Source of the DNA: an uncultured Spirochaetaceae bacterium
Lineage (GTDB): Bacteria > Spirochaetota > Spirochaetia > Sphaerochaetales > Sphaerochaetaceae
Length of the DNA stretch: 39,234 nucleotides
NCBI GenBank assembly: GCA_964623005.1
Contig: CAZURL010000001.1
Span: 1-39,234 of the forward strand
Direction: 5' to 3'
Numbering within the stretch: the first letter of the stretch is position 1; each line of letters begins with the position of its first letter. The notes beneath the pieces were generated by a model. It ran no database searches, had not been told where the DNA came from, and saw only the letters and a program-made list of their open reading frames with translations. Shown here one piece after another: positions 1,326-29,315 of the stretch. The position numbers and the translations under genes were made by a program.

Positions 1326-2788
1326 AATTCTGCCTCCTGTGCAAGTTCTAATGCTTTAAGTGAAGATTTGGCTTTGTTCAGACATTCTTCAAATTCCTTC
1401 TCGGGTACAGAATCCGCCACAATTCCGGCTCCGCTTCTCACGAATACCTTCCCGTTCTTCTTATAGGCAATGCGGATGGCAATACAGGTATCCATATTCC
1501 CCGTGAAGTCGATATAGCCAATGGCACCGCCATAGATGCCACGCTTGTTGTTTTCAAGTTCCCCTATTAACTGGCAAGCTCTAATCTTCGGCGCACCGGA
1601 AAGCGTTCCAGCAGGTAATACCGCTTCAATGGCATCCAGTGCATCGTGATTTTCGCTGATTTCACCACGCACCGTAGAGCCGATGTGCATAACATGGGAG
1701 AAGCGTTCAATGGAATGGAGCTTTTCGACCTGTACAGTACCGAACTTGCTTATTTTTCCGAGATCATTTCGTCCTAAATCGACCAGCATATTGTGTTCGG
1801 CAAGTTCCTTTTCGTCAGCAAGCAGCTCGGCTTCAAGAGCTTTGTCTTCTTCCACAGTTTTGCCTCTCGGTCTTGTCCCTGCAAGCGGGAAAGTGTGCAG
1901 CACACCATTTTCCAGCTTTACCAGCGTTTCGGGAGATGCTCCTGTAACCTCTACGTCTGTTCCTGAAAAATAAAACATATACGGTGATGGATTGATTGTG
2001 CGAAGCACACGGTAGGTATTCAAGAGACTTCCCTCAAAAGGCGCACTTAGGCGGTTGGAAAGTACAATCTGGAAAATATCCCCCTCACGGATATGGTACT
2101 TTGCTTTTTCTACCATGCCGCAGAATTGCTCTTTGTCAAACAACGGCGTAACTTCTCCAAGTAGCTTGCCCCCCGGTTCATTCTTCTTTTCGCCGTGTCT
2201 CAAAAGCTCTACGAGCTGCTTCAATTCCATAACTGCTTTGTTGTAACCTGTTTCCGGCTCATCCAACGGCATATTCACAATGAGAATAATTTTCTGTCGG
2301 AGATGATCGAATGCGATAACTTTATCAAAGAGCATCAGGTCAACATCCTTAAATGCCTCGGTATCTTCTACATCACATTTAACGGTCGGCTCGCTGTAGG
2401 TGAGATAATCATAGGAGAAGTATCCGACAAGACCGCCTGTAAAGGAAGGGAGATAATCGAAACGGGGACTTATGTAATCTGTAAGGATCTGGCGGAGATA
2501 GTGGGACGGGTTATCCGTCTTAACCTTGAGGTTGCCGATCTTCATTTCGCCATCAATGCAAGTGATCTCCATTTTCGGGTCAAACCCAAGGAAAGTATAA
2601 CGTCCCCAAGTTTCATTTGCCTGAGCGGATTCCAGCATATAGCAATGAGTGGATACATTTTTCAGTATCTTCATCACTTCAATAGGGGTTGTGAAGTCGG
2701 AAAGGATTTCAAGGCTGACCGGCAATACGTTATAACGACCAGTTGCTGCGATTTCTTTGACTCGGGCAAAAGTTGGCTGAATTTTCAT
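1322..2788 (-). CDS. trpE: anthranilate synthase component I
   Basis: Chorismate-binding family motifs (LESA..., PSPYMFY, GAPKIRA, GIYGGAIGY). The track ORF extends to a TTG at 2803, but the ATG at 2788 (MKIQPTF) has a GGAGG 8 nt upstream. Confidence 0.93.
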   Translation of the reverse strand: MKIQPTFARVKEIAATGRYNVLPVSLEILSDFTTPIEVMKILKNVSTHCYMLESAQANETWGRYTFLGFDPKMEITCIDGEMKIGNLKVKTDNPSHYLRQILTDYISPRFDYLPSFTGGLVGYFSYDYLTYSEPTVKCDVEDTEAFKDVDLMLFDKVIAFDHLRQKIILIVNMPLDEPETGYNKAVMELKQLVELLRHGEKKNEPGGKLLGEVTPLFDKEQFCGMVEKAKYHIREGDIFQIVLSNRLSAPFEGSLLNTYRVLRTINPSPYMFYFSGTDVEVTGASPETLVKLENGVLHTFPLAGTRPRGKTVEEDKALEAELLADEKELAEHNMLVDLGRNDLGKISKFGTVQVEKLHSIERFSHVMHIGSTVRGEISENHDALDAIEAVLPAGTLSGAPKIRACQLIGELENNKRGIYGGAIGYIDFTGNMDTCIAIRIAYKKNGKVFVRSGAGIVADSVPEKEFEECLNKAKSSLKALELAQEAEL

Positions 2789-2822
2789 AATCAGTTCCTC
2801 CAAATAGGTAAAGTAAAGTGGG

Positions 2823-2891
2823 TCATTTATTAGGATGATTCAATTTCAATATTCGGCGCACAGTGCGCCACCAACGTTTTGTATGCAGCAT
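2823..2891 (-). CDS. candidate 22-codon upstream ORF MLHTKRWWRTVRRILKLNHPNK with tandem Trp codons
   Basis: Perfect AGGAGG (2899-2904, minus) 7 nt before the ATG. Two adjacent UGG codons. Ends 32 nt before the trpE ATG. No homology evidence is possible for so short a peptide. Confidence 0.3.
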   Translation of the reverse strand: MLHTKRWWRTVRRILKLNHPNK

Positions 2892-2904
2892 ATTGCAACC
2901 TCCT

Positions 2905-2950
2905 AAAACAAAGAAAAGACTCCTTTGAGCGTCTATCTCAGTCAAAGGAG
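2905..2950 (-). terminator. second intrinsic terminator-like hairpin in trp leader
   Basis: Minus strand: CTCCTTTGA-13 nt loop-TCAAAGGAG (9 perfect bp) followed by TCTTTTCTTTGTTTT. Confidence 0.5.
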
Positions 2951-2956
2951 CCTTAT

Positions 2957-2999
2957 AAAACAAAAACATCCTTGAAAGAGATATACACTCTATCAAGGA
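2957..2999 (-). terminator. T-box terminator hairpin
   Basis: Minus strand: TCCTTGATAGAG-TGTATAT-CTCTTTCAAGGA (12 bp, 1 mismatch) followed by TGTTTTTGTTTT. Its 5' arm CCTTGAT can instead pair with ATCAAGG of the T-box sequence, forming the antiterminator. Confidence 0.7.
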
Positions 3000-3252
3000 C
3001 GAATAAAAACACTTATCCGCGGTGCCACCTTGATTCATAGGAATGACCCTATGCACTTAGCAGGATACAAACATATCCCCAGCAAATGACGTCTGCCTAC
3101 AACGTCGCAGAATACTTTGTGAAATTCACATTTGACTGCGCCCTCAGCGGCCCATTTGACAACTTGTTTCTTACCTGACTCTCAGCACCACAGGCTCTCT
3201 GTAAAGGCATCATTGCCGTTATCTCCGCTTCAACGGTTTGAAGTATTAAATT
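2957..3252 (-). promoter_or_regulatory. T-box leader, predicted tRNA-Trp specific, controlling trpEGD
   Basis: T-box sequence AATCAAGGTGGCACCGCG at 3017-3035 (minus), versus consensus AAUNAGGGUGGNACCGCG. Stem I elements are CAGAGAG and GGTGCTGAGAG. Candidate specifier UGG (3152-3154) followed by a purine lies just before the closing helix GCGG/CCGC. The antiterminator bulge UGGC matches a G73 discriminator. Confidence 0.8.
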
Positions 3253-3258
3253 TTGTGT

Positions 3259-3288
3259 ATTGTATTTCAGTTTTACATACCTTATCAA
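3259..3288 (-). promoter_or_regulatory. sigma70-type promoter for trp leader
   Basis: Minus strand TTGATA-18 nt-TACAAT, positioned just upstream of Stem I. Confidence 0.45.
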
Positions 3289-3312
3289 TAGGTATGTGCG
3301 GATTGTTATAAT

Positions 3313-3660
3313 TTATTCACATTCTGCTATATAAAGGTTCTTATACTCTGTTACAGTCTTCAAATAGGTTTCCGGATCATCGTTCAAAATAAGATCGGCG
3401 TATTCAAGCGGTTCATTGTAGATCAGATAGTCAAGCTCCGACCTCTGATACATATTGTCGGCAACCTCTTTCTCAACAGCATCGTGTCAATCGCAATCAT
3501 GCTGTCATCGCTGAATTTCAGTTCCACACAAGCAATCCATGTTGAACTCATAAAAAATCAAAGGCGGCATATCCACCCTCTTAGGTTTCAATGCCTCCTT
3601 GATCGCTTGATAGGTGTCTTTCTTCTCCGCATCGACAAATCAAGCTCGTCCATATCCAAG
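3313..3660 (-). pseudogene. decayed ORF of unknown family (single frame interrupted by three TGA codons)
   Basis: Own translation: ...GYGRA*FVDAEKKDTYQAIKEALKPKRVDMPPLIFYEFNMDCLCGTEIQR*QHDCD*HDAVEKEVADNMYQRSELDYLIYNEPLEYADLILNDDPETYLKTVTEYKNLYIAECE*. Composition is protein-like, but there is no usable start codon. Confidence 0.25.
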
Positions 3661-3674
3661 TTTATTTCGATATG

Positions 3675-4832
3675 TTACTTTGCATTCAGTTTGGACAATA
3701 AACATACCGTCTCTATATGTGGAGAGCCAGGAAACATGTCTACAGGTTGTATGCCTATTATCCTGTATGGCAAAAATCGTCTTATATACCGTAAATCACG
3801 CTGTAGGGATTCAGGTGAACATGAGATATAAACAATTCTATCAGGGGCCATCCTTCCAGCTGCGGCAAGAAATTCCTCGGTTGCGCCGGATCGTGGAGGA
3901 TCCAAGAATAGTACATCACATTTTTCTTTCCGTTTTGCCGCTGCTTTCATATACTTTGAAGCATCTGCATTTACGAATGTGACGTTATCAAGATTATTCA
4001 TCCTTGCATTCTCCTCAGCATCTTTGACAGCTTCTGGATTTGATTCAATGCCGAGAACCGTTGAACCATATGTTGCAGCAATAAGGGCGATCGTTCCCGT
4101 GCCGCAGTACGCATCAATCACGATATCATCGGGACGAAGCATTGCCATATTCATTGCGATTTTATATAGCCGTTCCGCCATGTAAGGATTCACTTGATAG
4201 AAAGAGACAGGAGAAATCCGAAAATACAGACCGCACATCCTATCCGTGATATAAGGCTTGCCATAGATAAGGCGAACCTTGGGATTTTCAGGAATAACCA
4301 TGCTTGTCTTTTCATCATTCCTGATTGCAACGACACCTTTCACAAACGGATGCTTCTGATGGATAGCTGCGGCAAGATCGTTCTCGTGAGGAATCTTGTC
4401 AGTTGCTGTAATGAGCACTACAAGAGCCTCATTATTATGGGCGGCAACCCGTATAAGCACATGCCTTAGATTACCATAGCCCATGTCCTCATCATATGCG
4501 ATGATGCCATATCGATTTGAGAGAGAGCGTATGGTTTCAAGTATCTGCCCAACCCTCTCATCTTCAAGTGGACAGAAGCGAACAGGGATAAGTTTGTGGC
4601 TGCCTTTGCGATAGATACCAGTGACAAGTCGACCATCGACTGTGCCACAGACAGCTTGTGCCTTGCATCGATAGCCTGTGATTCTGTCGCTTTTGAGGAT
4701 AGGCGCGACCTTGCAAAAACGAGAGAGAAGCTTCTCTTCTGTGATGCGTTTATCCAAAAGCTCATCTGAGTATGGAATATTGGCATACGTACATCCACCA
4801 CAGCGGCCTGATAGAGAACAATGACGTCTCAT
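3675..4832 (-). CDS. 23S rRNA (uracil-5)-methyltransferase, RumA/RlmD/TrmA family, with Fe-S Cys cluster
   Basis: N-terminal CSLSGRCGGC plus a downstream Cys. SAM motif DAYCGTGT. C-terminal DPPRSG and ISCSP...VDMFP motifs typical of the family. Confidence 0.85.
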   Translation of the reverse strand: MRRHCSLSGRCGGCTYANIPYSDELLDKRITEEKLLSRFCKVAPILKSDRITGYRCKAQAVCGTVDGRLVTGIYRKGSHKLIPVRFCPLEDERVGQILETIRSLSNRYGIIAYDEDMGYGNLRHVLIRVAAHNNEALVVLITATDKIPHENDLAAAIHQKHPFVKGVVAIRNDEKTSMVIPENPKVRLIYGKPYITDRMCGLYFRISPVSFYQVNPYMAERLYKIAMNMAMLRPDDIVIDAYCGTGTIALIAATYGSTVLGIESNPEAVKDAEENARMNNLDNVTFVNADASKYMKAAAKRKEKCDVLFLDPPRSGATEEFLAAAGRMAPDRIVYISCSPESLQRDLRYIRRFLPYRIIGIQPVDMFPGSPHIETVCLLSKLNAK

Positions 4833-6987: not shown

Positions 6988-8504
6988 TCTTCCTTTACCC
7001 CCGCCATCAGCACTCCGAGTCTAGAGCGTGTCGCTTCATCATGGTTAAGAACCTTCATTATCGCTCCTTTATAGATGACTGCGATTCTGTCAGAGAGATT
7101 CATGATCTCATCAAGTTCTTCGGAGATCAGAAGAACGCCAATGCCTTCGCGTCTGATTGAAAGAAGCTGCTGATGTATGAACTCGACAGCTCCCAGATCG
7201 AGGCCTCTTGTTGGATAGACTGCAATAAGGAATTTTGGTTTTCGTTCAATCTCACGCGCAAGTATTACTTTCTGTATATTTCCGCCTGAGAGAGAGCCTG
7301 CGGCCGTGTTGATTCCTGGACAGCGAACATCGAAATCCTTTATGAGCTTTTCTGCACATTCATCAACCTTTTTTGCATTGATGATCGAGCAGGAAGAAAA
7401 TTCCGTTTCAGAGACATCTTTCAATATAATGTTCTCGCGGATTGAGAACGAAGGGACAATGCCTTCGGTATTTCTTTCTTCGGGGATGTATCCCATGCCC
7501 TCATCGATGACAGCGCGCGGCGAAAAATTCTGGATTTCCTTTCCAAAGAAGGAAATTGTACCGGATTCAACCTTCCTAAGACCATTGATCGCTTCCGCAA
7601 GCTCCCTCTGCCCATTGCCCGATACACCAGCAATACCGACAATCTCACCAGCCTTTATATCAAGAGAAAGATGGTTCAGCGCAGGGATCTTCCTATCGGA
7701 CATTACGACAAGATCCTTCATCGAGAGCACTACATTACCTGTCTCAACCTTCTCGTTATTAGTCGGAAGCGTTACGCTATGCCCTGTCATCATTGATGCA
7801 ATATCCTGAGAAGAATGCTCCTCGGTGTTTCCAGAGAAAACCACCTTACCATGCCTGAGAATAGAGACTTTGTTCGAAAGTGCCTTTACTTCCTGGAGCT
7901 TATGGGAGATGAAGATAATCGAAAGCTCGTTTGTCATCTTCTTCAGAAGATCGATAAGCTCGTCTGTCTCTTGTGGCGTAAGAGCGCTTGTAGGCTCGTC
8001 GAGAATCAAGAACTTAGCTCCCAGACACAGAGTCTTGACAAGTTCTACCCTCTGCTGCTCTCCGACTGAAAGCTGCCAGATATACGCTTCCGGATTTACC
8101 GCTAGCCCATATTTCTCCGAGATTTCAACTATCCGCTTCCGTACATCGGATAATGATAGCCTGAACGGTTTCCACGCTTGCTTATAGCCTAGGGCGATGT
8201 TCTCCGTTACTGTCATGTTCTGCACTAACATATAGTGCTGATGAACCATTCCCAGTCCTGCCTTGAACGCATCCTCAGGGCCACGGAAATTTACCTCATT
8301 GCCATTGATTACGATTCTCCCTTCGTCTGGCTGGTAAAGGCCCATGAGGATGTTCATCAGCGTTGTCTTTCCAGCGCCATTCTCCCCTACAAGGGCAAGA
8401 ACTTCGCCTTCCCCGACTGCAATAGAGATATCATCAGAAGCAAGAACGCCAGGAAAACGCTTTGTGATATGCTCCATTCTCAGTTCGGTGATCTTTTCTT
8501 CCAT
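6984..8504 (-). CDS. ABC transporter ATP-binding protein, duplicated ATPase domains
   Basis: Walker A GENGAGKTT, signature LSVGEQQR, Walker B LILDEPT. The second half has LSGGNIQK. This architecture is typical of sugar/nucleoside importers. Confidence 0.9.
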   Translation of the reverse strand: MEEKITELRMEHITKRFPGVLASDDISIAVGEGEVLALVGENGAGKTTLMNILMGLYQPDEGRIVINGNEVNFRGPEDAFKAGLGMVHQHYMLVQNMTVTENIALGYKQAWKPFRLSLSDVRKRIVEISEKYGLAVNPEAYIWQLSVGEQQRVELVKTLCLGAKFLILDEPTSALTPQETDELIDLLKKMTNELSIIFISHKLQEVKALSNKVSILRHGKVVFSGNTEEHSSQDIASMMTGHSVTLPTNNEKVETGNVVLSMKDLVVMSDRKIPALNHLSLDIKAGEIVGIAGVSGNGQRELAEAINGLRKVESGTISFFGKEIQNFSPRAVIDEGMGYIPEERNTEGIVPSFSIRENIILKDVSETEFSSCSIINAKKVDECAEKLIKDFDVRCPGINTAAGSLSGGNIQKVILAREIERKPKFLIAVYPTRGLDLGAVEFIHQQLLSIRREGIGVLLISEELDEIMNLSDRIAVIYKGAIMKVLNHDEATRSRLGVLMAGVKEE

Positions 8505-8520
8505 CAATCAAAACCGCCTA

Positions 8521-8550
8521 AAAAATATAGGCAGAGCGCATAGCCCTGCC
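8521..8550 (-). terminator. intra-operon hairpin after SBP gene (possible partial terminator)
   Basis: Minus strand GGCAG-11 nt-CTGCC followed by TATATTTTT, lying between the SBP stop and the ATPase start. Confidence 0.3.
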
Positions 8551-8564
8551 CAAGTCATCAAGAA

Positions 8565-9596
8565 TCAGAGAGTCGAATAATCGACGCTCGCCCAGTCAGA
8601 TAGAACGCCGGCAGAAGCTTTGAACGCTGCAATCTGTTCATCAACTTTTGCCCTAAGCTCATCAGAAACCCACGCTCCCTCAAGAGCTGGATTATATTCG
8701 AAAATGAATCCACCGTTATTGAAGTTCATCGGAATGCATTCGCCGCCCTTTACGCCAGACTCCAGCTTTTCGACAAGTTCAACAATAACAGCAGCATAGT
8801 TATAGGAAGATGCTGCGATACACTTAGCCTGACCTTCAACAGTCGTAAGCTGGGCAAGATCCTGTCCAAGCCACATTGCTGTCGGGCTTTCTGCTGTAGC
8901 TCTGAGGGCGCCGATTGCCTGCTGAGAGGATCCCGTCATGATATCAGCACCATTGGCAAGCTGAGACGTCGCAACTTCAGAAGCCTTTACATAATCAGAG
9001 AATGAACCAGTATGTGCAACGAGGATCTTGCAATCTGGGTTCACGGACTGCACACCAAGCACGAAGCCGCGGTTGTAGCGGGCTGAATCACCAGAATCAA
9101 CAGGGCCGACAAGACCTACGATATCAGTCTCTGTAAGTGTTCCTGCAATGATACCATTGATGTATCCCGTCTCCTCGGATTCCGGCATGTATGTAAATAC
9201 ATTCTCAGGCCCGATCTCAGAAGATGTTCCGAACGCAAACGATACATTTGGATATTCCTCAGCCATCTCAAGAATCGTGTTCTTATACTGAGCGCCATGA
9301 GCGATAATGAGGTCATATCCTTCGGCAACATACTGTCTGGCCATGGAACCTGCATCAACGACAGCCATCTTCTCGGAATAATTGTACTCAATCTTTCCAG
9401 GAAGCATCTCCATTGCCTGCATAATGCCATCATGCATAGCTTGACACCAGCCTTTATCATCGATTGTATTTTCAATGATAAGTGCTATCTTAATCGTGCC
9501 ATCGGAAGAACCGGATGAAGTACTCTCGCCAGATCCGGAGGCGAAAACCGACATGGCCATGATCATAACCATGAGGATGGTCAACAGTTTCTTCAT
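8565..9596 (-). CDS. BMP family (PnrA/Med-like) ABC substrate-binding protein
   Basis: Signal peptide MKKLLTILMVMIMAMSVFASGSG (no Cys) with AAGGAG upstream of the ATG at 9596. Body resembles basic-membrane-protein/purine-nucleoside receptor family proteins. Confidence 0.88.
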   Translation of the reverse strand: MKKLLTILMVMIMAMSVFASGSGESTSSGSSDGTIKIALIIENTIDDKGWCQAMHDGIMQAMEMLPGKIEYNYSEKMAVVDAGSMARQYVAEGYDLIIAHGAQYKNTILEMAEEYPNVSFAFGTSSEIGPENVFTYMPESEETGYINGIIAGTLTETDIVGLVGPVDSGDSARYNRGFVLGVQSVNPDCKILVAHTGSFSDYVKASEVATSQLANGADIMTGSSQQAIGALRATAESPTAMWLGQDLAQLTTVEGQAKCIAASSYNYAAVIVELVEKLESGVKGGECIPMNFNNGGFIFEYNPALEGAWVSDELRAKVDEQIAAFKASAGVLSDWASVDYSTL

Positions 9597-9624
9597 AAAA
9601 CTTCTCCTTATGTTTGACTCTTTA

Positions 9625-9653
9625 AGTATCAAGTAATGAATGTTCTTTGTCAA
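9625..9653 (-). promoter_or_regulatory. sigma70-type promoter of nucleoside ABC operon
   Basis: Minus strand TTGACA-17 nt-GATACT, about 30 nt upstream of the SBP ATG. Confidence 0.4.
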
Positions 9654-9823
9654 AGAAAATACAGAATGGATTTAGAAAAATAATCTTGATTTTTATTCGA
9701 AGTAATTATCTATCAATTCTAAAGTAGCTTTTCAATTATTACAAAATATATTCAATCATGCATTTCTTTTTTCCTTTATTCACAAAGATTTTTTCTGCTT
9801 TATAATCAGAAATGGAGGAATCG

Positions 9824-10216
9824 ATGAACGAAATACTTGAATTTCTGAAGAAAGCAGGAACCTATTATCTAGCGACCGATGAAAATGGCCAGCCTCGGGT
9901 AAGGCCATTCGGTACAATACATGAGTTTGAAAACCGCCTCTATATACAGACAGGAAAGAAAAAGGCTGTCTCAAAGCAGCTTCATAAGAATCCGAGGCTT
10001 GAGATCTGCGCATTTTTAGATGGTACTTGGCTAAGAATCGAAGCCAAAGCCGTTGAGGATGACCGAAGAGAAGCCCGGATTTCGATGCTTGAGGCATATC
10101 CAGAGCTTAAAAATATGTATGATGCTGATGACGGCAATACCGAAGTCTTCTATCTTGATGAAGGTATAGCTACGTTTTCTTCATTCACTGCACCGGAGAG
10201 AAAAGTAGAATTCTGA
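9824..10216 (+). CDS. pyridoxamine 5'-phosphate oxidase-fold (FMN-binding split-barrel) family protein
   Basis: MNEILEFLKKAGTYYLATDENGQPRVRPFG...LYIQTGKKK...EICAF pattern typical of small PNPOx-like proteins. GGAGGA lies 4 nt before the ATG at 9824; the track start at 9812 is an alternative. Confidence 0.75.
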   Translation: MNEILEFLKKAGTYYLATDENGQPRVRPFGTIHEFENRLYIQTGKKKAVSKQLHKNPRLEICAFLDGTWLRIEAKAVEDDRREARISMLEAYPELKNMYDADDGNTEVFYLDEGIATFSSFTAPERKVEF

Positions 10217-11481
10217 TGGATGTAAGGATAGAAAGTTTAAGTATCGATGGATTTAAAAACGTAAGGCACGGTTCATTCACGATGCCAGAGGCCCTTTATG
10301 GCAGATCCTCTTCTGATATCCTAGCAATCTTCGGACAGAACGGTTCTGGGAAAAGCACCGCAATCGAAGCGTTAGCTACTCTTTATTACATTCTCTCAGC
10401 ACGTGCGCTTTCAGGAAGGATCAGAGAACTTGTCAATGTTGATAAAACAGAAGCTGAACTTTCTATCTCATTCATTCTTGAAGGAAGAAAACACCTTCGG
10501 GTTCGCTATACAGTAAGAATCGGCGGCAGTGAATCGGTCTCTATTCTCTCAGAGCGGATCACAGTAGCAGAAAGCGGAGAACGCTCTTCAACCGTTTTCT
10601 GGGATGAAAAAGGAAGAATCTATGGCAAGCCTCGTCAATTGAAGAAAGAGGAAGCTGAGAGTGCGATTGCAGATGCAAAGAAGAAAAAGATCTCGGTGTT
10701 TTTCTCAAATAATTGCTTTACCCATTCTATTGATAATAAATTGGTAAAAAAAGCAATTGATGAAATAAGCGCTTATGCGAAGACTTCATTCATTGTCATC
10801 AACCCAAGAAATCGCAAATATGATAAAGATATCCTCCATATAAGCTATCTAAGGATGTCTGGCAGAAGGAAGATCAAGGGACGTCTTGATATCAATCTAG
10901 CCTCCCCTTTCAGTCTGAAACGGGAGGAAGAAGCGAATCTACTCGATACAATTGAAAATATAAATACGGTGCTTCTTACCTTGATTCCTGATATGAAAAT
11001 CAGTATTTCAAAGCTTGAAGATGGAAGCATAGAGCTTTTCTCGGACAAGAATGGCCTCCCGATACCACTTCGCTCTGAATCGGAGGGAATCATAAAACTT
11101 ATTTCCATTATCTCTGTTCTGATATTCGTCTACAACGAAAGAGGCTCTGCTCTTATTATCGATGAGCTTGATGCTTCAATCTACGAATACTTACTCGGAG
11201 AAATAATGGAAGTATTCAGAAATGGAGCTGCTGGACAGCTTATTTTCACAAGCCATAACCTTCGTATTCTTGAGATGATCGACAAGCGCTCCCTGATTTT
11301 CTCAACCAATAACCCCGATCAGAAGTATGTAAGGCTTCCTGATTCCATTCCTGATACCACGAACCTTCGGAACTACTATCTTCGAACTGTCTTGCTTGCT
11401 GATGATGAATCATCGCTCTCATCAGGAACAGATCCCCATGATATAGCAAGAGCGCTTAGAAAGGCGTGGCGCCATGAATAA
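10216..11481 (+). CDS. ABC/SMC-type P-loop ATPase (AAA_15/AAA_21-like; AriA/AbiLi/RloA-like)
   Basis: N-terminal IESLSIDGFKN...IFGQNGSGKST (Walker A, nt 10333-10359). Signature-like SESEG. Walker B LIIDELD (nt 11152-11172). H-loop FTSHN. No transmembrane partner gene. The start overlaps the PNPOx stop (TGATG). Confidence 0.85.
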   Translation: MDVRIESLSIDGFKNVRHGSFTMPEALYGRSSSDILAIFGQNGSGKSTAIEALATLYYILSARALSGRIRELVNVDKTEAELSISFILEGRKHLRVRYTVRIGGSESVSILSERITVAESGERSSTVFWDEKGRIYGKPRQLKKEEAESAIADAKKKKISVFFSNNCFTHSIDNKLVKKAIDEISAYAKTSFIVINPRNRKYDKDILHISYLRMSGRRKIKGRLDINLASPFSLKREEEANLLDTIENINTVLLTLIPDMKISISKLEDGSIELFSDKNGLPIPLRSESEGIIKLISIISVLIFVYNERGSALIIDELDASIYEYLLGEIMEVFRNGAAGQLIFTSHNLRILEMIDKRSLIFSTNNPDQKYVRLPDSIPDTTNLRNYYLRTVLLADDESSLSSGTDPHDIARALRKAWRHE

Positions 11482-12163
11482 GCTTGTGATTTTCATAACC
11501 GAAGGAAAAAGCGAAGAGAATGCTTTATATACGCTTATGCGAAGCTATTTTCGCCCAGATAAGGTCGTCTTCCATATTTATCATGGCGATCTGCTTATAA
11601 AGCGATATAGAAAAGGTGGAGTTGTATCAGAGATAAATGAAATTGTTGCGTATGAATGCAGAAAATATGGGTTGACTACGGATGATATCAAAAGGGTAAT
11701 ACATATTGCGGATACCGATGGCTTGTTCATTCCAGATACGGCAGTGAAATTTGATGAGAAGGCTCAAAAAGCAAAGTATACGGCAAATGCAATCTATACG
11801 AATAATCCCGATTCGATTCTACAGCGCAACAAAAGACGGCGTTTGAACATCAAGCAGCTAATAATCACAACAAAGATCCAAGATGGAATCCCTTATCATA
11901 TCTTTTATCTTTCAAGGAATATCGAACACGCGCTCTATGGGCTTGAAGGGCATGTGAATGATAATAGGAAAACAGATCTTGCATATAAATTCTCTGATCG
12001 ATTCGGTTATGATTGGAAAGCATTTATAAGCTATATTGAAACAGAAGAAATCACATTAGGAAACAATTTCGAAGAATCATGGAAACTAATAAAAAATGAT
12101 ACCGAAAGTTTGTGTAGACATAGCAATATTCTTTATTTATTCAATGAATCTTCTGAGATTTGA
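11474..12163 (+). CDS. Toprim-like putative nuclease partner (RloB/DUF4435-like)
   Basis: N-terminal VIFITEGKSEE (conserved Glu, nt 11501-11503), IHIADTDG (DxD, nt 11711-11719) and a distal LSRNIEHALYG motif. 8-nt overlap (ATGAATAA) with the ATPase gene. Family assigned by motif pattern only. Confidence 0.7.
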   Translation: MNKLVIFITEGKSEENALYTLMRSYFRPDKVVFHIYHGDLLIKRYRKGGVVSEINEIVAYECRKYGLTTDDIKRVIHIADTDGLFIPDTAVKFDEKAQKAKYTANAIYTNNPDSILQRNKRRRLNIKQLIITTKIQDGIPYHIFYLSRNIEHALYGLEGHVNDNRKTDLAYKFSDRFGYDWKAFISYIETEEITLGNNFEESWKLIKNDTESLCRHSNILYLFNESSEI

Positions 12164-12300
12164 TGTTAATTTAATATAATTTTACTATTTTAATCATAAA
12201 AGCCTCTTCCTTGAGAGAAAATAAAGTAAATATTTTATATAATTTTAAATTATTATTCTGATTTCAGTATTTTATATTAATTTTATAATTTAACTCGATT
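12164..12300. repeat. AT-rich tract with imperfect direct repeats
   Basis: TATTTTATATAATTTTAAATT (12231-12251), TATTTTATATTAATTTTATAATT (12268-12290) and a related TAATTTAATATAATTTTAC (12167-12185). Confidence 0.4.
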
Positions 12301-12305
12301 AGCTG

Positions 12306-12334
12306 TTTACAAAACAAATTCAAATGCGCATAAT
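12306..12334 (+). promoter_or_regulatory. promoter of tRNA-Val
   Basis: TTTACA-17 nt-CATAAT, ending 12 nt before the mature tRNA 5' end. Confidence 0.4.
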
Positions 12335-12346
12335 AGCAAAAGATTT

Positions 12347-12418
12347 GGGCGCGTAGCTCAGCGGGAGAGCATTACCTTCACACGGTAGGGGTCGTTGGTT
12401 CAATCCCAATCGCGCCCA
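12347..12418 (+). tRNA. tRNA-Val (anticodon CAC)
   Basis: Hand-folded cloverleaf: GGGCGCG/CGCGCCC acceptor, GCTC/GAGC D stem, anticodon loop TTCACAC, T loop TTCAATC, discriminator A. CCA is not encoded. Confidence 0.9.
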
Positions 12419-12422
12419 TTAG

Positions 12423-12450
12423 AGAGCGGTTATTGCCGCTCTTTTGTTTT
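12423..12450. terminator. intrinsic terminator between tRNA-Val and convergent oxidoreductase gene
   Basis: AGAGCGG-ttattg-CCGCTCT followed by TTTGTTTT. Confidence 0.6.
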
Positions 12451-12458
12451 AAGCGTTA

Positions 12459-13982
12459 TCAGCTGAAATAATCACCAATGAGTCGTAGAGCGGCTTCCGT
12501 TCCGTCAATCGCAGCAGAAACAATACCACCAGCATAGCCAGCTCCTTCACCAGCGGGATATAATCCCCTGCCCTGCTTCATTCCTTCATCTCGTATGATC
12601 CGGATTGGAGATGAGGTTCTTGTCTCAGGGGCAATAAGAACGGCATCGTGAGTTATGAATTTAGAGCGTGACATACGTCCAAATGCCTTTAATCCTTCCC
12701 TCAGCGACGAAGAAATAACCGGGGGAAGAACATCGTCGATACGAACACTTCTCAGTCCTGGATGATATGTTGTCCGAGGAAGATCAGAAGAGATTTTGTT
12801 ATCAATAAAGTCTGTCAGACGTTGTGCAGGGGCAACAAAGCGATCAGAAAAACATCGTCTCTCTATATCTTCGATATATCGAAGCATCGAGAATGGATCA
12901 TCGTTTGCCACTTCTTCTTTTCTGAGTTCAACAACAATGCCGCTGTTTGCAAAGACACCAGCTCTGCTATGTGGAGACATCCCATTTACAACCAGATGTC
13001 CTTCCTCGCTTGATGCAGGAACAACAGAACCTCCGGGACACATGCAGAATGAATATACCCCACGGCCATTGACCTGCGTGACAAATGAATACGTTGCAGG
13101 AGGGAGAAAAGGACTTCGCTTTCCCTCTGTATGATACTGCATCGAATCTATCAGTGCTTGCTTATGCTCAAGGCGTACACCAACAGCTGTGCTCTTTGCT
13201 TCGAGAATATATCCTGAATCAGAGAGAAAATAATAAACATCTTTTGCGCTATGTCCTGTAGCAAGAATTACAGGAGCGATGATTTCTTCCCCTGTAGAAA
13301 GTCTTACGCCAATAGTTGCAGATCCACTCTTAACCAGTCCCGTAACACGAGAAGAAAATCTAACTTCGCCGCCATGGGAGATGATCTCATTTCGCATAGA
13401 TTCAACGATACGGAGAAGCTTATCAGATCCAATATGTGGATGTGCTTCATAGAGAATGCTCTCATCAGCCCCGAACTGAACAAAGAGACGTAGGATTCTC
13501 CCTACGTCGCCACGTTTTGAGGAGCGCGTGTAAAGCTTTCCATCAGAGAATGTACCGGCACCACCCTCTCCGAATGCGAAGTTCGATTCCGGGTTCAAAA
13601 TGCCTTTCTGGGAAAGAAGCGCTGTATCACGAAGACGAGAATGAACGTCCTTTCCTCTTTCGAGGACAATCGGCGCGACTCCATTCTCAAGAAGCGTTAG
13701 AGCCGCAAATAATCCAGCAGGCCCCGAACCAACGACAATAGCTTTTCCTTTCAGCCCAGGTAAAAGTTCTATTTTCTTAAAAGAAGGAATCGTCTCATCA
13801 CCTGTATATAGTCTGACTTTAAGAGAATACATTACATTCGAGCGACGAGCATCGAGGCTTTTTCTGAGAATTGTCATCCCACTTATTTCTTTAAGACCAG
13901 CTTTTTTCATTGCAGAACGCTTTATCATTAAATTATCAGCTGCTTCTTCTGGTCTTATCGTGATGTCTACTTCACGGCTCAT
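12459..13982 (-). CDS. FAD-dependent oxidoreductase (COG2509-like)
   Basis: Dinucleotide-binding motif VVGSGPAGLFAA after an approximately 80-aa N-terminal domain. FGEGGAGTFSDGKL and a C-terminal PAGEGAGYAGGI are characteristic of this family. Confidence 0.85.
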   Translation of the reverse strand: MSREVDITIRPEEAADNLMIKRSAMKKAGLKEISGMTILRKSLDARRSNVMYSLKVRLYTGDETIPSFKKIELLPGLKGKAIVVGSGPAGLFAALTLLENGVAPIVLERGKDVHSRLRDTALLSQKGILNPESNFAFGEGGAGTFSDGKLYTRSSKRGDVGRILRLFVQFGADESILYEAHPHIGSDKLLRIVESMRNEIISHGGEVRFSSRVTGLVKSGSATIGVRLSTGEEIIAPVILATGHSAKDVYYFLSDSGYILEAKSTAVGVRLEHKQALIDSMQYHTEGKRSPFLPPATYSFVTQVNGRGVYSFCMCPGGSVVPASSEEGHLVVNGMSPHSRAGVFANSGIVVELRKEEVANDDPFSMLRYIEDIERRCFSDRFVAPAQRLTDFIDNKISSDLPRTTYHPGLRSVRIDDVLPPVISSSLREGLKAFGRMSRSKFITHDAVLIAPETRTSSPIRIIRDEGMKQGRGLYPAGEGAGYAGGIVSAAIDGTEAALRLIGDYFS

Positions 13983-14035
13983 GAGAATATTCTAAGGTCT
14001 GTTCAATTCTTATTGCAAGATTGTACAATCCAAGC

Positions 14036-15889
14036 GTGAATATTCTATCGATTGAGAATCTTGAGAAAACAGTAAAGGATGAACCGCTTTTCGAAGGGGT
14101 ATCTCTTGGCCTTGATGATGGCGAAAAAGTCGGCATTGTCGGAAAGAATGGAACGGGAAAGTCGACATTTCTCAAAACTGTCATTGGACTGATCCCTCCC
14201 GATGAAGGAAAGGTCTCTATACGTTCAGGCTATGATATCTCATACCTAGAGCAGATTGTGGAATATCCTGAGGGGACAACTGTCCATGACTATCTTTTTC
14301 TTGCTGATAGCAGAAAGATAAAAACGCTCCTTGATTACAGAAATGCATTGGAAACTGGAAATGAAAGCCTGTATCAAAAACTATATGAAATAATCGAGAA
14401 GGAAGGACTCTGGGATATCGAGCATAACTATGAAGCCATAATCGACAGTCTTGGAGAGAAGATAGCGCCAGAGCGGCTTATGCATAGCCTTTCCGGGGGA
14501 CAGCAGAAGAAGGTTGCACTGGCAAGAGCGCTTTCGCTTTCTCCTGATATTCTCTTTCTTGATGAACCTACAAACCATTTGGATATCAAATCAATCGAGT
14601 TTCTGGAAAACTGGATTAAGGAAACAAAAGCGTCTGTCATTATTGTCACTCATGACAGGCATATTCTAAACGAATGCTGCACTACAATCTGGGAGCTTGA
14701 TAAGAAACACTTCTACCGACATCCTGGTTCATTTTCATCTTACCTTGAACGGAGAGAAGAGAGGATACGAATGGGCGAAAAGGAGATGGCGCGATTAGAG
14801 ACAATACTGCGACGAGAGCATGAATGGCTTTTGCGTGGGCCAAAAGCTCGTACGGGGAAGGATAAAAACCGTAAAGACCGGATCAAGGAGATGGAAGGAA
14901 AGCTTGAAAAAGTCAGAGATGATAAGCAACAGGCTTTCGCATCAATCGATCGAAGACTCGGCAAGAAGATATTAGACGTTGATGGTATCTCGAAAGCCTA
15001 TGAGGGAAACCTGCTCTTCTCGAATTTTACCTTTTCATTTCAGAAAGGACAGAGAATCGGGCTTATCGGTGAAAATGGGGTTGGTAAGTCTACCCTCCTT
15101 GATATCCTCACAGGGTGCATAGAGCCAGATACTGGAACTATAGACAAAGGCGTTAACACCCACTTTGGATACTATGATCAGCTTGGACGGAATATCATCT
15201 CAGATAAAGGGATCCTTGAATATGCCGAGGATATAGGAAAGCGTGTCCTGCTATCAGATGGCGAAGATGTATCTGCATCAAGATTTCTTGAGCTATTTGG
15301 CTTTCCTGTATCAATGCAGCGTCTTGCTATATCAACATTATCTGGCGGTGAAAGACGAAGGCTTTACCTTATTACGCGTCTTTTATCGAATCCGAACTTC
15401 CTTGTCCTTGATGAGCCGACCAATGATCTTGATCTTGAGACGATGGAAAACCTTGAAAGCTATATCTCCTCTTTTAAGGGTACGGTATTGATTTCCTCTC
15501 ACGATAGGACATTCCTTGATCTTACTGTTGATATGCTTCTTGTCATCAAGGACAAAAAGATAACGCTATTTCCTGGTAATTATACGGATTGGAAGAAAGC
15601 AGAAGGTGACAAGATCATAAAGACCGAAGAGAAGAAGACAGTAGTTCCAAGACAGGTCAGAGAGAAGAAAGGACTGACTTTTAAGGAAAAGAAGGAGAAA
15701 GAATCGATTGAAGCGAGGATGGAAGAGCTTGAAAGCCTTATTTCAACGCTTGAAGAATCCTTCTCCGATCCGCATGAAACAGAGCTTGGTACGCTAAGAG
15801 AAAGAACAATAAGATACGAGAACTCGAAAAACGAACTGGAACAGATTTCTGATAGATGGCTTGAGCTTGCTGAAAAAGAAGAAAGCTGA
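14036..15889 (+). CDS. ABC-F family ATPase (Uup-like, C-terminal coiled coil)
   Basis: Two ABC domains (GKNGTGKST, LSGGQQKK, LFLDEPTNHLD; GENGVGKST, LSGGERRR, LVLDEPTNDLD) and a Lys/Glu-rich C-terminal tail. The GTG at 14036 gives the typical N-terminus (M)NILSIENL; the TTG at 14021 is an alternative. Confidence 0.88.
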   Translation: MNILSIENLEKTVKDEPLFEGVSLGLDDGEKVGIVGKNGTGKSTFLKTVIGLIPPDEGKVSIRSGYDISYLEQIVEYPEGTTVHDYLFLADSRKIKTLLDYRNALETGNESLYQKLYEIIEKEGLWDIEHNYEAIIDSLGEKIAPERLMHSLSGGQQKKVALARALSLSPDILFLDEPTNHLDIKSIEFLENWIKETKASVIIVTHDRHILNECCTTIWELDKKHFYRHPGSFSSYLERREERIRMGEKEMARLETILRREHEWLLRGPKARTGKDKNRKDRIKEMEGKLEKVRDDKQQAFASIDRRLGKKILDVDGISKAYEGNLLFSNFTFSFQKGQRIGLIGENGVGKSTLLDILTGCIEPDTGTIDKGVNTHFGYYDQLGRNIISDKGILEYAEDIGKRVLLSDGEDVSASRFLELFGFPVSMQRLAISTLSGGERRRLYLITRLLSNPNFLVLDEPTNDLDLETMENLESYISSFKGTVLISSHDRTFLDLTVDMLLVIKDKKITLFPGNYTDWKKAEGDKIIKTEEKKTVVPRQVREKKGLTFKEKKEKESIEARMEELESLISTLEESFSDPHETELGTLRERTIRYENSKNELEQISDRWLELAEKEES

Positions 15890-27932: not shown

Positions 27933-29315
27933 ATGGAGAGAAGGATCAAGGAGATTCTTGCCTTAACGCCATCTGATGAGATAATCAAAGCAGAGGGCTG
28001 GGTAAGGACAAGAAGAGATAGCAAGAACGTCTCATTTGTTGAGATTAGCGATGGTTCATGCCTCAAAGGGTTACAGGTAGTTCTCGATAGATCGAAATTC
28101 AGCGATAACGAACTTGAGTCGGTGATGACAGGCGCATCTGTTGTTGTTACTGGAAAGATTGTAAGCTCGCAGGGAGGCTCACAGAGTGTTGAGCTTCAGG
28201 CCCAGTCGCTTGAAGTAATCGGAATATGTCCGCAGGATTACCCTTTGCAGAAAAAACGTCATACGGTAGAGTTTCTGAGAGAAAAGGCATATCTGAGACC
28301 ACGTACTAACCTATTTGGCGCAGTAACGAGAGTACGTAATACGATGGCATATGCTGTTCATTCATTCTTTCAGGAAAATGGCTTTGTATATGTAAATACG
28401 CCGCTGATCTCTGCATCTGACTGTGAAGGTGCCGGGGCACAGTTTCAGGTAACGACACTCAATCTTGAAGATGTGCCTAAGACAGAAGATGGCAAGGTCG
28501 ATTATTCCAAGGACTTTTTCGGGAAGATGGCTAATCTTACTGTTTCTGGACAGCTTGAAGGTGAGACATATGCACTTGCGATGAAGAATATCTACACATT
28601 CGGGCCTACTTTCCGCGCAGAAAATTCAAATACAGCTCGTCACCTTGCAGAGTTCTGGATGATTGAACCGGAAATGGCATTCTGTACCCTTGAAGGCGAT
28701 ATGGAAATTGCAGAGAAATTCCTCAAATACATTTTCAAGGCCGTTCTCGATAAAAATGCTGAGGATATGGAATTTTTCTCAAAGTTCGTCCTCGATGGGG
28801 TTGTTGAAACACTTGAGCATGTCATTGAAAGCCCGTTTGAGCACATGACATATACAGAGGCTGTTAAGATTCTTGAGAAACACAATGATATTTTCGAATT
28901 TCCTGTCAGCTGGGGCGTAGAGATTCAGAGTGAACACGAAAGATACCTTACAGAGAAGATTGCAAAGCGTCCTGTTATCGTTACGGATTATCCTAAGGAT
29001 ATCAAGGCATTCTACATGAAGATGAATGACGATGGAAAAACAGTCAGGGCAATGGACGTGCTTGCGCCTCGGCTTGGGGAGATCATCGGAGGTTCTGAAA
29101 GAGAGTATAGATACGATGTACTTCTTTCACGGATGAAAGAACTCGGTCTCGATCCAGATTCATATTGGTGGTATCTTGATCTGAGAAAGTATGGCACAGT
29201 GCCACACGCAGGATTCGGCCTTGGATTCGAGCGCGCTGTACAGTATGTCACAGGTGTTGCAAACATCCGCGATGTCATTCCATATCCAAGATATGTCAGG
29301 AGCTGCGAGTATTGA
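27933..29315 (+). CDS. asnS: asparagine-tRNA ligase
   Basis: 460 aa. N-terminal OB fold ([21 protein letters not shown]) and class IIb motifs ([37 protein letters not shown]). Confidence 0.93.

Follow-up and report, generated by a model that had tools for sequence, protein, structure and literature searches.

A 39,234-nt stretch of DNA from an uncultured Spirochaetaceae bacterium, contig CAZURL010000001.1 (hereafter the window, meaning the whole stretch), contains two overlapping genes, one for an ATP-binding cassette (ABC)-type ATPase and one for a 229-amino-acid (aa) protein, encoded at 11474-12163, that we call X. We view these genes as a candidate two-gene ABC-ATPase/Toprim-like cassette of the defence type, with which bacteria counter phages and plasmids, self-contained and horizontally mobile, with an effector that would belong to a family as yet unmodelled, and we estimate the probability of this explanation as a whole at about 0.65. 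In the window, the pair directly follows a gene for a PNPOx-fold protein, and the resulting three open reading frames (ORFs), all on the + strand, are tightly packed.

9824-10216, + strand: gene for a PNPOx-fold, NimA/NimC-like protein binding flavin mononucleotide (FMN), 130 aa (Pfam PNPOx_N, 8e-10; PDB 2ig6, 3.5e-32)
10216-11481, + strand: gene for an ABC/SMC-type ATPase, 421 aa, putative sensor/regulator subunit (Pfam AAA_21, 3.9e-21; PADLOC AbiLi, 2.2e-31)
11474-12163, + strand: gene for the Toprim-like protein X, 229 aa, putative metal-dependent nuclease effector (conserved residues, AlphaFold2 model, weak Toprim-clan matches)

The gene anatomy put forward in a preliminary description of this DNA stands in full. 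The three genes lie where they had been placed. A single base is common to the stop codon of the PNPOx gene and the start codon of the ATPase gene (TGATG), and the first 8 nt of the X gene are also the last 8 of the ATPase gene (ATGAATAA). Likewise, the ATPase start has no close Shine-Dalgarno sequence of its own, the nearest GGAG being ~17-20 nt upstream.

The ATPase-X pair and its genomic contexts

The association between the two genes is strict. We surveyed 37 loci with an X homologue (about 24 once redundancy is removed), using a profile of the spirochaete ATPases. At every locus (37/37), the gene directly upstream of the X homologue encodes an ATPase of this one family (E <= 1e-75), with an overlap of 8-17 nt between the two genes in 36 cases and a 2-nt gap in the other one. 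ATPase and X are separate ORFs in all 37 loci, never one polypeptide.

The pair is also mobile, as is clear from the range of its contexts. It is found on Spirochaetaceae and Spirochaetales chromosomes known from metagenome-assembled genomes, in conjugative/integrative elements of human-gut Firmicutes that encode a relaxase, MobC, serine recombinases and ArdC/YodL/LPD polyvalent proteins, and on the RefSeq plasmids pBTHD521-5 (B. thuringiensis) and pRUMAL01 (R. albus), where tyrosine recombinases are nearby and the names given by PGAP are "AAA family ATPase" and "hypothetical protein." The homologues are WP_013483398/WP_013483399 on pRUMAL01 and WP_050822421/WP_050822422 on pBTHD521-5. The literature that we searched does not contain the RefSeq accessions of the plasmid homologues. 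For the spirochaete loci, the genome scan was done with X alignment A2, which reaches spirochaete relatives only; A3 is a broader alignment.

Moreover, the distribution of the pair is patchy. The preliminary description had pointed to a comparison of relatives between the Bmp gene and tRNA-Val, and the unit is indeed missing there in some of them: in a check anchored on Bmp, loci L117-L122 have Bmp 77-79% and ABC genes 74-79% identical to those of the window, with no PNPOx, ATPase or X at this site. In L117-L119, the ABC-F gene beyond the unit is kept (56% identical) and the gap is filled by AzlC/AzlD and a TehB-like methyltransferase, so that the stretch from the Bmp operon to ABC-F varies among relatives; the corresponding part of the window (8565-15889 in this comparison) holds PNPOx-ATPase-X-tRNA-Val and a 507-aa protein gene dependent on flavin adenine dinucleotide (FAD). 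Where relatives do have these genes, identity to the window proteins is 38-61% for the ATPase and 43-72% for X, 65-81% for PNPOx and 75-93% for Bmp.

Mobility raises the alternative that the pair serves the element that carries it, through addiction to a plasmid or to an integrative and conjugative element (ICE) or through exclusion between elements, X being the toxin and the ATPase its regulator. Homologues do occur on large plasmids and in elements that are conjugative or mobilisable, where recombinases, relaxases and a gene for a PemK toxin are close by, and the Pfam text on AAA_21 reads "putative AbiEii toxin, Type IV TA system" (TA, toxin-antitoxin). However, the copies in spirochaetes lie on chromosomes, with no mobile-element gene closer than about 5 kb, and have persisted across deep divergence, and the closest profile matches are to abortive-infection/defence ATPases. 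Location by itself does not separate the two roles, since such elements typically carry defence systems as well. Overall, we find an element-serving role unlikely and favor a defence-type cassette, to which mobile-element cargo, patchiness, fast evolution and the kinship of the ATPase to defence ATPases all point indirectly.

A few individual loci deserve mention. In the Firmicute elements (L107, 12000-12708; L106-L111, about 8800-10200), the pair lies amid small unknown genes, in a region that also contains a Peptidase_M78/ImmA-like gene, helix-turn-helix regulators and a PemK toxin gene, and that may hold accessory or defence cargo of the element. The phage collection contains a single X match. 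It shares 44% identity with the Firmicute representative P0165 and lies at 28040-28717 of the 132.5-kb Clostridioides phage pCD1602_4 (CP069348.1), an unannotated phage-plasmid whose record bears a plasmid-like name. At L024, the gene for leucyl-tRNA synthetase (LeuRS) and the pair are separated by an IS605 OrfB/TnpB (Cas12f1-like) gene and an unknown gene of 368 aa (2750-4027), both missing from the same spot in the otherwise syntenic L023.

Protein X and its kinship to Toprim proteins

X belongs to a large family. A word-indexed search returned 15 close relatives, all metagenomic, while an exhaustive profile search yielded 1,384 representatives at 50% identity (E <= 1e-3), of which 348 have E <= 1e-30, almost all of the listed ones being 220-250 aa long. 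None of the 120 best X matches in a set of 5.8 billion proteins has a precomputed Pfam domain, and the names given to homologues (from Selenomonas, Oscillospiraceae, Ruminococcus and Bacillota) are "hypothetical protein." Against PDB sequences, X itself found nothing significant (best E 0.025), and the family profiles A2 and A3 gave chance-level matches only, for example, to an integrin I-domain and a chorismate mutase.

We aligned 78 members of the family, 26-71% identical to the window protein. Eight positions (E10, G11, D39, D80, D82, K166, R215 and N218) are invariant in these homologues, and eight others (D71, G83, R118, N119, K122, S147, N149 and H152) nearly so, with S147, N149 and H152 conserved in at least 90% of them. 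The motifs singled out in the preliminary description, that is, the Glu of FITEGKSEE, the DxD of IADTDG and the distal SRNIEHAL, are therefore real and conserved across the family.

An AlphaFold2 (AF2) model of X computed from the 78-sequence alignment has a predicted local distance difference test score (pLDDT) of 95.2 and a predicted template-modeling score (pTM) of 0.91; it replaced an earlier, mediocre model built from 13 sequences (pLDDT 73.8). The model consists of β1 (residues 4-9), α1, β2 (30-35), α2, β3 (72-80), β4 (139-146) and a helical C-terminal part, and the SRNIEHAL motif comes after β4. This order of secondary structures is compatible with the three-layer α/β fold of Toprim domains, with a β2-β1-β3-β4 sheet. 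In this model, the invariant E10 follows β1 and D80-x-D82 closes β3. By definition, a Toprim active site has its conserved Glu where β1 ends and its DxD after β3 (PMC12065111), which is how E10 and D80/D82, all of them invariant, are placed in X.

Profile and fold searches point the same way, at low scores. The three commonest Pfam matches among the 78 members are DUF4276 (21 members, best E 2e-4), Toprim (17) and OLD-like_TOPRIM (10), all of the Toprim clan, and the alignments begin at the first profile position and take in the DxD region. Several members also weakly match partner models in PADLOC, namely mad4 (8 of 78, best E 9e-4), several HEC-01B models (best E 5.5e-5), PDC-M38B, PDC-M12B and, in one case, AbiLii. 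A fold search against BFVD returned as its best match a phage "RloB-like protein" (E 1.5e-3, probability 0.97, TM 0.39), with Toprim entries of topoisomerases and DnaG lower down the list. We infer the Toprim fold of X from such sub-threshold evidence, and consider X likely to be a divergent member of the Toprim superfamily. As for the Toprim-style partner announced in the preliminary description, the catalytic layout claimed there is conserved across the family, and no profile or fold match reaches threshold.

Several results weigh against the cassette as we read it. As a single sequence, X has no match at E <= 1 in Pfam, PADLOC, NCBIfam or PHROGs. No family member reaches the gathering score of a Toprim-clan Pfam family, the scores being 15-21 bits vs. 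23.1 for Toprim and 30.2 for DUF4276. Foldseek searches of the X models against the PDB gave nothing at E <= 1e-3, the top matches being generic α/β sandwiches, and AriB appeared in the list (E 9e-3 to 3e-2) solely with the lower-confidence model of pLDDT 73.8. Alignment by hhalign of the X family profile with Escherichia coli YbjD, a class 1 OLD protein, had a probability of 0.2, which is uninformative because the template was a single sequence. Among the viral contigs of IMG/VR, the patterns used (P0165 and A2) found no relatives of X, and the window locus itself is outside any defence island, with no integrase nearby. Finally, HEC-01, architecturally the closest tested candidate, gave no protection in the published assay (bioRxiv 10.1101/2024.01.29.577857).

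Part of these results would also be expected if X were not a catalytic Toprim protein at all, but a Rossmann- or flavodoxin-like α/β adaptor or some other enzyme, in which the Glu and DxD arose by convergence. The low profile scores and the failed alignment with YbjD fit this, as do the top Foldseek matches in the PDB, which are flavodoxin, PurE, lumazine synthase and YsxC-type proteins (all E > 1e-3). On the other hand, the commonest Pfam matches are all to one clan and are aligned from position 1 through the DxD, the invariant acidic residues fall precisely at the ends of β1 and β3, the BFVD list is headed by an RloB-like protein and also includes topoisomerase and DnaG Toprim entries, and the obligate partner of X is an ABC ATPase of a class that pairs with Toprim effectors. 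A non-Toprim X is thus quite unlikely in our view.

The ATPase, known systems and a possible mechanism

The ATPase displays all the motifs attributed to it in the preliminary description: a Walker A GQNGSGKST that includes K46, a signature-like SESEG, a Walker B LIIDELD and an H-loop TSHN. In Pfam, it matches AAA_21 and, more weakly, AAA_23, SMC_N and AAA_15 (2.6e-7). In PADLOC, AbiLi (PDLC02335; 2.2e-31, 107 bits) is the best of 54 families, followed by AriA (1.1e-23, with a second model at 1.5e-9), whose models are generic for this class of ATPases, and by mad3 (2.8e-13); PDC-M07A, HEC-01A (4e-11 to 2e-6) and PtuA come further down. Sequence similarity to the solved AriA chains is not detectable.

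Weak matches of the ATPase N terminus to RecF, Rad50 and SbcC suggest another alternative, a housekeeping pair for DNA repair or nucleic-acid processing akin to RecF (an ABC ATPase) and RecR (a Toprim protein). Among these matches are NCBIfam TIGR00611 (4.9e-7) and the sole hit of a PDB sequence search, RecF 2o5v (E 0.0086). Yet the NCBIfam matches to RecF/Rad50 are far below threshold (29 bits vs. a cut-off of 172), X has no match to RecR, and the patchy distribution, element-borne homologues and fast evolution, together with the absence of the pair from the relatives L117-L122, are at odds with a housekeeping role, which we deem highly improbable.

Conservation of the ATPase is uneven. In pairwise comparisons across 16 relatives, the C-lobe is 58-84% identical and an insert spanning residues 61-280 only 24-47%, so that conserved nucleotide-binding lobes flank a hypervariable, fast-evolving insert, the pattern that would be expected for a recognition region. 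At L008 (2545-4579), identity to the window protein is 69% for X but only 43% for the adjacent ATPase, whose N-lobe and insert are nearer to the L021-type ATPase (69% and 62%, respectively). These differences suggest recombination between the ATPase and effector genes.

An ABC ATPase with a Toprim protein is a recurrent defence architecture, and both DUF4276/Mad4 and RloB are members of the Toprim superfamily (PMC11464382, PMC12065111, bioRxiv 10.1101/2024.01.29.577857). The preliminary description had called the pair PARIS/AbiL/RloAB-like. This holds for the architecture, an ABC ATPase with AbiLi and AriA matches next to a small Toprim-like partner, but not for membership: with no match of X to DUF4435, RloB or AbiLii, the pair falls outside PARIS, AbiL and RloAB. 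As these families are now modeled, X belongs to none of DUF4435/AriB, RloB/AbiLii and DUF4276.

AbiL, a lactococcal abortive-infection system, likewise has an overlapping ABC/AAA_21 ATPase (AbiLi) followed by a smaller Toprim-superfamily partner (the RloB-like AbiLii). The window ATPase is of the AbiLi type by its PADLOC match, and the best BFVD neighbor of X, a borderline structural match, is RloB-like. X itself, in contrast, matches neither AbiLii nor RloB (PF13707), AbiLii being found in only one of the 78 members (E 0.0097), and with its ~230 aa X is shorter than AbiLii.

PARIS, also known as OLD class 4, is similarly split into an ABC ATPase (AriA) and a Toprim effector (AriB, a DUF4435 tRNA nuclease), is often found on mobile elements, and the window ATPase has the AAA_15/AAA_21 domains of AriA. 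In PARIS, a sensor ATPase releases the Toprim nuclease, which cuts tRNA (PMC11464382, PMC12409363). However, X has no match to DUF4435 (PF14491) or AriB at E <= 1, DUF4435 is not among the 25 Pfam families listed for the 78 members, and AriB is ~35 kDa (PMC11464382), as opposed to roughly 26 kDa for X, as estimated from its 229 residues.

The methylation-associated system MADS (Mad3/Mad4) and the PADLOC candidate HEC-01 resemble the window pair in having a small stand-alone Toprim-like partner beside an AAA_15/21 ABC ATPase. On the ATPase side, mad3 and HEC-01A models match the window protein, and DUF4276, mad4 and HEC-01B are the commonest weak matches among X members. The partner matches are all below threshold in these members, however, and the window X has none, including to HEC-01B. 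As regards MADS, no methyltransferase or other mad gene is among the ORFs listed at 7500-14500 (~2-2.5 kb around the unit), the domain and structure libraries having been run on the three unit genes and Bmp only. Lastly, OLD proteins of classes 1 and 2 (P2 Old, YbjD and GajA of Gabija) also combine an ABC ATPase with a Toprim nuclease using Glu and DxD metal ligands, but in one polypeptide, to which Gabija adds the GajB helicase, whereas the window pair consists of two genes.

By analogy with PARIS, OLD, AbiL, MADS3-4 and HEC-01 (PMC11464382, PMC12065111, bioRxiv 10.1101/2024.01.29.577857), we infer a complex of ATPase and X, nuclease activity for X and a role in defence. The ATPase would be an ATP-dependent sensor/regulator, with insert 61-280 as a putative recognition surface for the invader, and would hold or activate its small partner through ATP binding or hydrolysis. 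X, in turn, would bind Mg2+ via Glu10 and Asp80-x-Asp82 (plus Asp39) and would cut tRNA or DNA once a phage or another mobile element has been detected, the cleavage aborting infection or excluding the invading element. In the spirochaete lineage of the window, the cassette, lying directly behind the Nim/PNPOx-fold gene, is probably expressed from the promoter of that gene by translational coupling.

Such a cassette would not be categorically new, because its architecture is already well known. Left standing is a putative effector family that is large, mobile and unannotated and comes with an AbiLi-like ABC ATPase. It is common in spirochaetes and in the mobile elements of gut Firmicutes, and is recognized by no Pfam, NCBIfam, PADLOC v2 or PHROG model. 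We see about an even chance that this family, with its ~1,400 clusters, is an unrecognized defence effector family. With a profile model of it, annotation pipelines could flag numerous candidate defence loci that now escape them, and the pair offers a compact ATPase/effector combination (about 420-470 aa and about 230 aa) for mechanistic work.

The PNPOx gene and the surroundings of the unit

The PNPOx gene encodes a NimA/NimC-type split-barrel protein whose orthologues, 57-81% identical, are common in gut metagenomes. The NimC/NimA family has been linked to 5-nitroimidazole resistance in anaerobes. While the first in-frame ATG of the ORF is at 9812, the correct start is at 9824, which gives the 130-aa protein: all orthologues begin at the equivalent Met, and a GGAGGA is found 5 nt upstream.

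In one spirochaete subclade, and there only, this gene adjoins the pair, most loci being organized as a Bmp operon on the − strand followed by PNPOx-ATPase-X on the + strand. Wherever a spirochaete locus has PNPOx upstream (13 non-redundant loci), the ATPase start overlaps the PNPOx stop or directly adjoins it, and this arrangement persists down to about 38% ATPase identity. The pair is nevertheless independent of PNPOx. It has no adjacent PNPOx gene in five spirochaete contexts, namely L008 (TrmO upstream), L014 (a tRNA methyltransferase upstream), L017, L021 (where PNPOx and the pair are 2 kb apart, with two genes of the opposite strand in between) and L023-25 (where the pair lies between the LeuRS and serine dehydratase genes), nor in any of the Firmicute ICE or plasmid loci examined. 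Conversely, a scan for PNPOx orthologues gave 80 metagenome loci (57-75% identity), 44 of which have at least 1.5 kb of downstream sequence: ATPase, X and a flavokinase are missing from all 44, and none of the 80 loci has ATPase, X, Bmp or a flavokinase nearby. Co-occurrence of PNPOx and the pair thus fails in both directions, and the earlier idea of a distinct three-gene, PNPOx-coupled variant finds no support.

A second flavin-related gene nonetheless occurs at some of these loci. In many spirochaetes, the pair is directly followed by a stand-alone riboflavin-kinase-domain gene (PF01687) of 117-131 aa, for example, at 8733-9086 in L001, 8710-9105 in L005 and 6712-7107 in L014, and also in L015-L020. 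It comes after X in 6 of the 13 loci with PNPOx upstream, so that part of the spirochaete clade has the pair between two genes related to flavins. The window has no flavokinase, tRNA-Val being in its position.

An alternative, in line with the three-gene variant of the preliminary description, is that PNPOx, ATPase and X work together as one system, with the FMN-binding protein as sensor, cofactor supplier or regulator. The flanking by flavin-related genes would fit, as would the overlap or abutment of PNPOx and ATPase in 13/13 loci, even at an ATPase identity of just 38-41%, and the best promoter-like site is upstream of PNPOx. However, besides the occurrence of the pair without PNPOx and of PNPOx without the pair in all 44 informative loci, the PNPOx protein is much more conserved than the pair and is of a NimA/NimC type widespread in gut anaerobes, which makes a three-gene system hardly probable. 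Similarly, it is improbable that the pair has been drawn functionally into the flavin metabolism of this spirochaete lineage, such that a nuclease-based immune or stress module would be gated by a flavoprotein or by a flavin/redox signal. Separate from this and more probable is that X represents an unrecognized defence effector family.

We therefore judge PNPOx to be a lineage-specific neighbor rather than a component of the module, because the pair exists without it, because 44 PNPOx loci are without the pair and because it evolves more slowly. Indeed, the evolution of PNPOx is that of a housekeeping gene (65-81% identity, vs. 38-61% for the ATPase). The coupling is real and conserved in the lineage, and it is best read as the result of a cassette having landed behind a housekeeping gene whose expression it borrows. 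Since the flavin-coupled three-gene claim fails when related loci are compared, effort built on that premise is unneeded. Two further candidates were rejected: the neighboring Bmp transporter as a spirochaetal riboflavin importer, which would have accounted for the PNPOx and flavokinase genes close to it, as it matches generic BMP/PnrA-type proteins and has no riboflavin-binding protein among its PDB matches, and an ancestral PNPOx-riboflavin kinase operon, which was not observed in the 44 informative PNPOx loci.

The other features of the unit and its downstream side are as follows.

9779-9806, + strand: promoter-like site TTCACA-16-TATAAT (11/12), before the PNPOx gene; consensus match only
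12164-12345, no strand: AT-rich intergenic spacer, 18% G+C, with weak ATTTTATATA-type low-complexity repeats (63-66% matches)
12306-12334: promoter-like site for tRNA-Val, within the AT-rich spacer
12346-12419, + strand: tRNA-Val(CAC)
12421-12444, + strand: terminator-like hairpin after tRNA-Val, the sole one on the + strand of the region

The site at 9779-9806 is the best-scoring promoter-like site of the region and the likely start of a PNPOx-ATPase-X transcript in this genome. Directly before the ATPase there is no comparably good site, merely one of 9/12 at 10184-10211. No terminator was found between X and tRNA-Val, and the hairpin after tRNA-Val would mark the downstream boundary of the unit. 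Rfam elements in the region are limited to tRNA-Val, with no riboswitch, and no flanking direct repeats pointing to a recent insertion scar were found around the unit.

In terms of composition, X has a G+C content of 35.5%, the lowest of the 23 long ORFs in the window (mean 44.1%, standard deviation 2.6), and the ATPase (41.4%) and PNPOx (42.7%) are both within about one standard deviation of that mean; the window as a whole has 43.7% and the flanking genes 45-47%. The G+C dip in the preliminary description (33-38% in the two genes, vs. 45-52% in the flanks) is accordingly borne out for X, but not for the ATPase or for the upper range of the flanks. The unit does lie next to tRNA-Val, as described, and the tract in between is indeed AT-rich, although its repeats are weak and of low complexity.

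The neighbors of the unit in the window are the Bmp ABC transporter, tRNA-Val, a FAD-dependent protein and ABC-F. The gene for the FAD-dependent 507-aa protein (12459-13982, − strand), downstream of tRNA-Val, has a 62% identical orthologue at L014 (9496-11022, − strand), ~3 kb downstream of the ATPase-X pair of that locus, which is without the Bmp operon and PNPOx. Some synteny has therefore been kept on that side of the pair.

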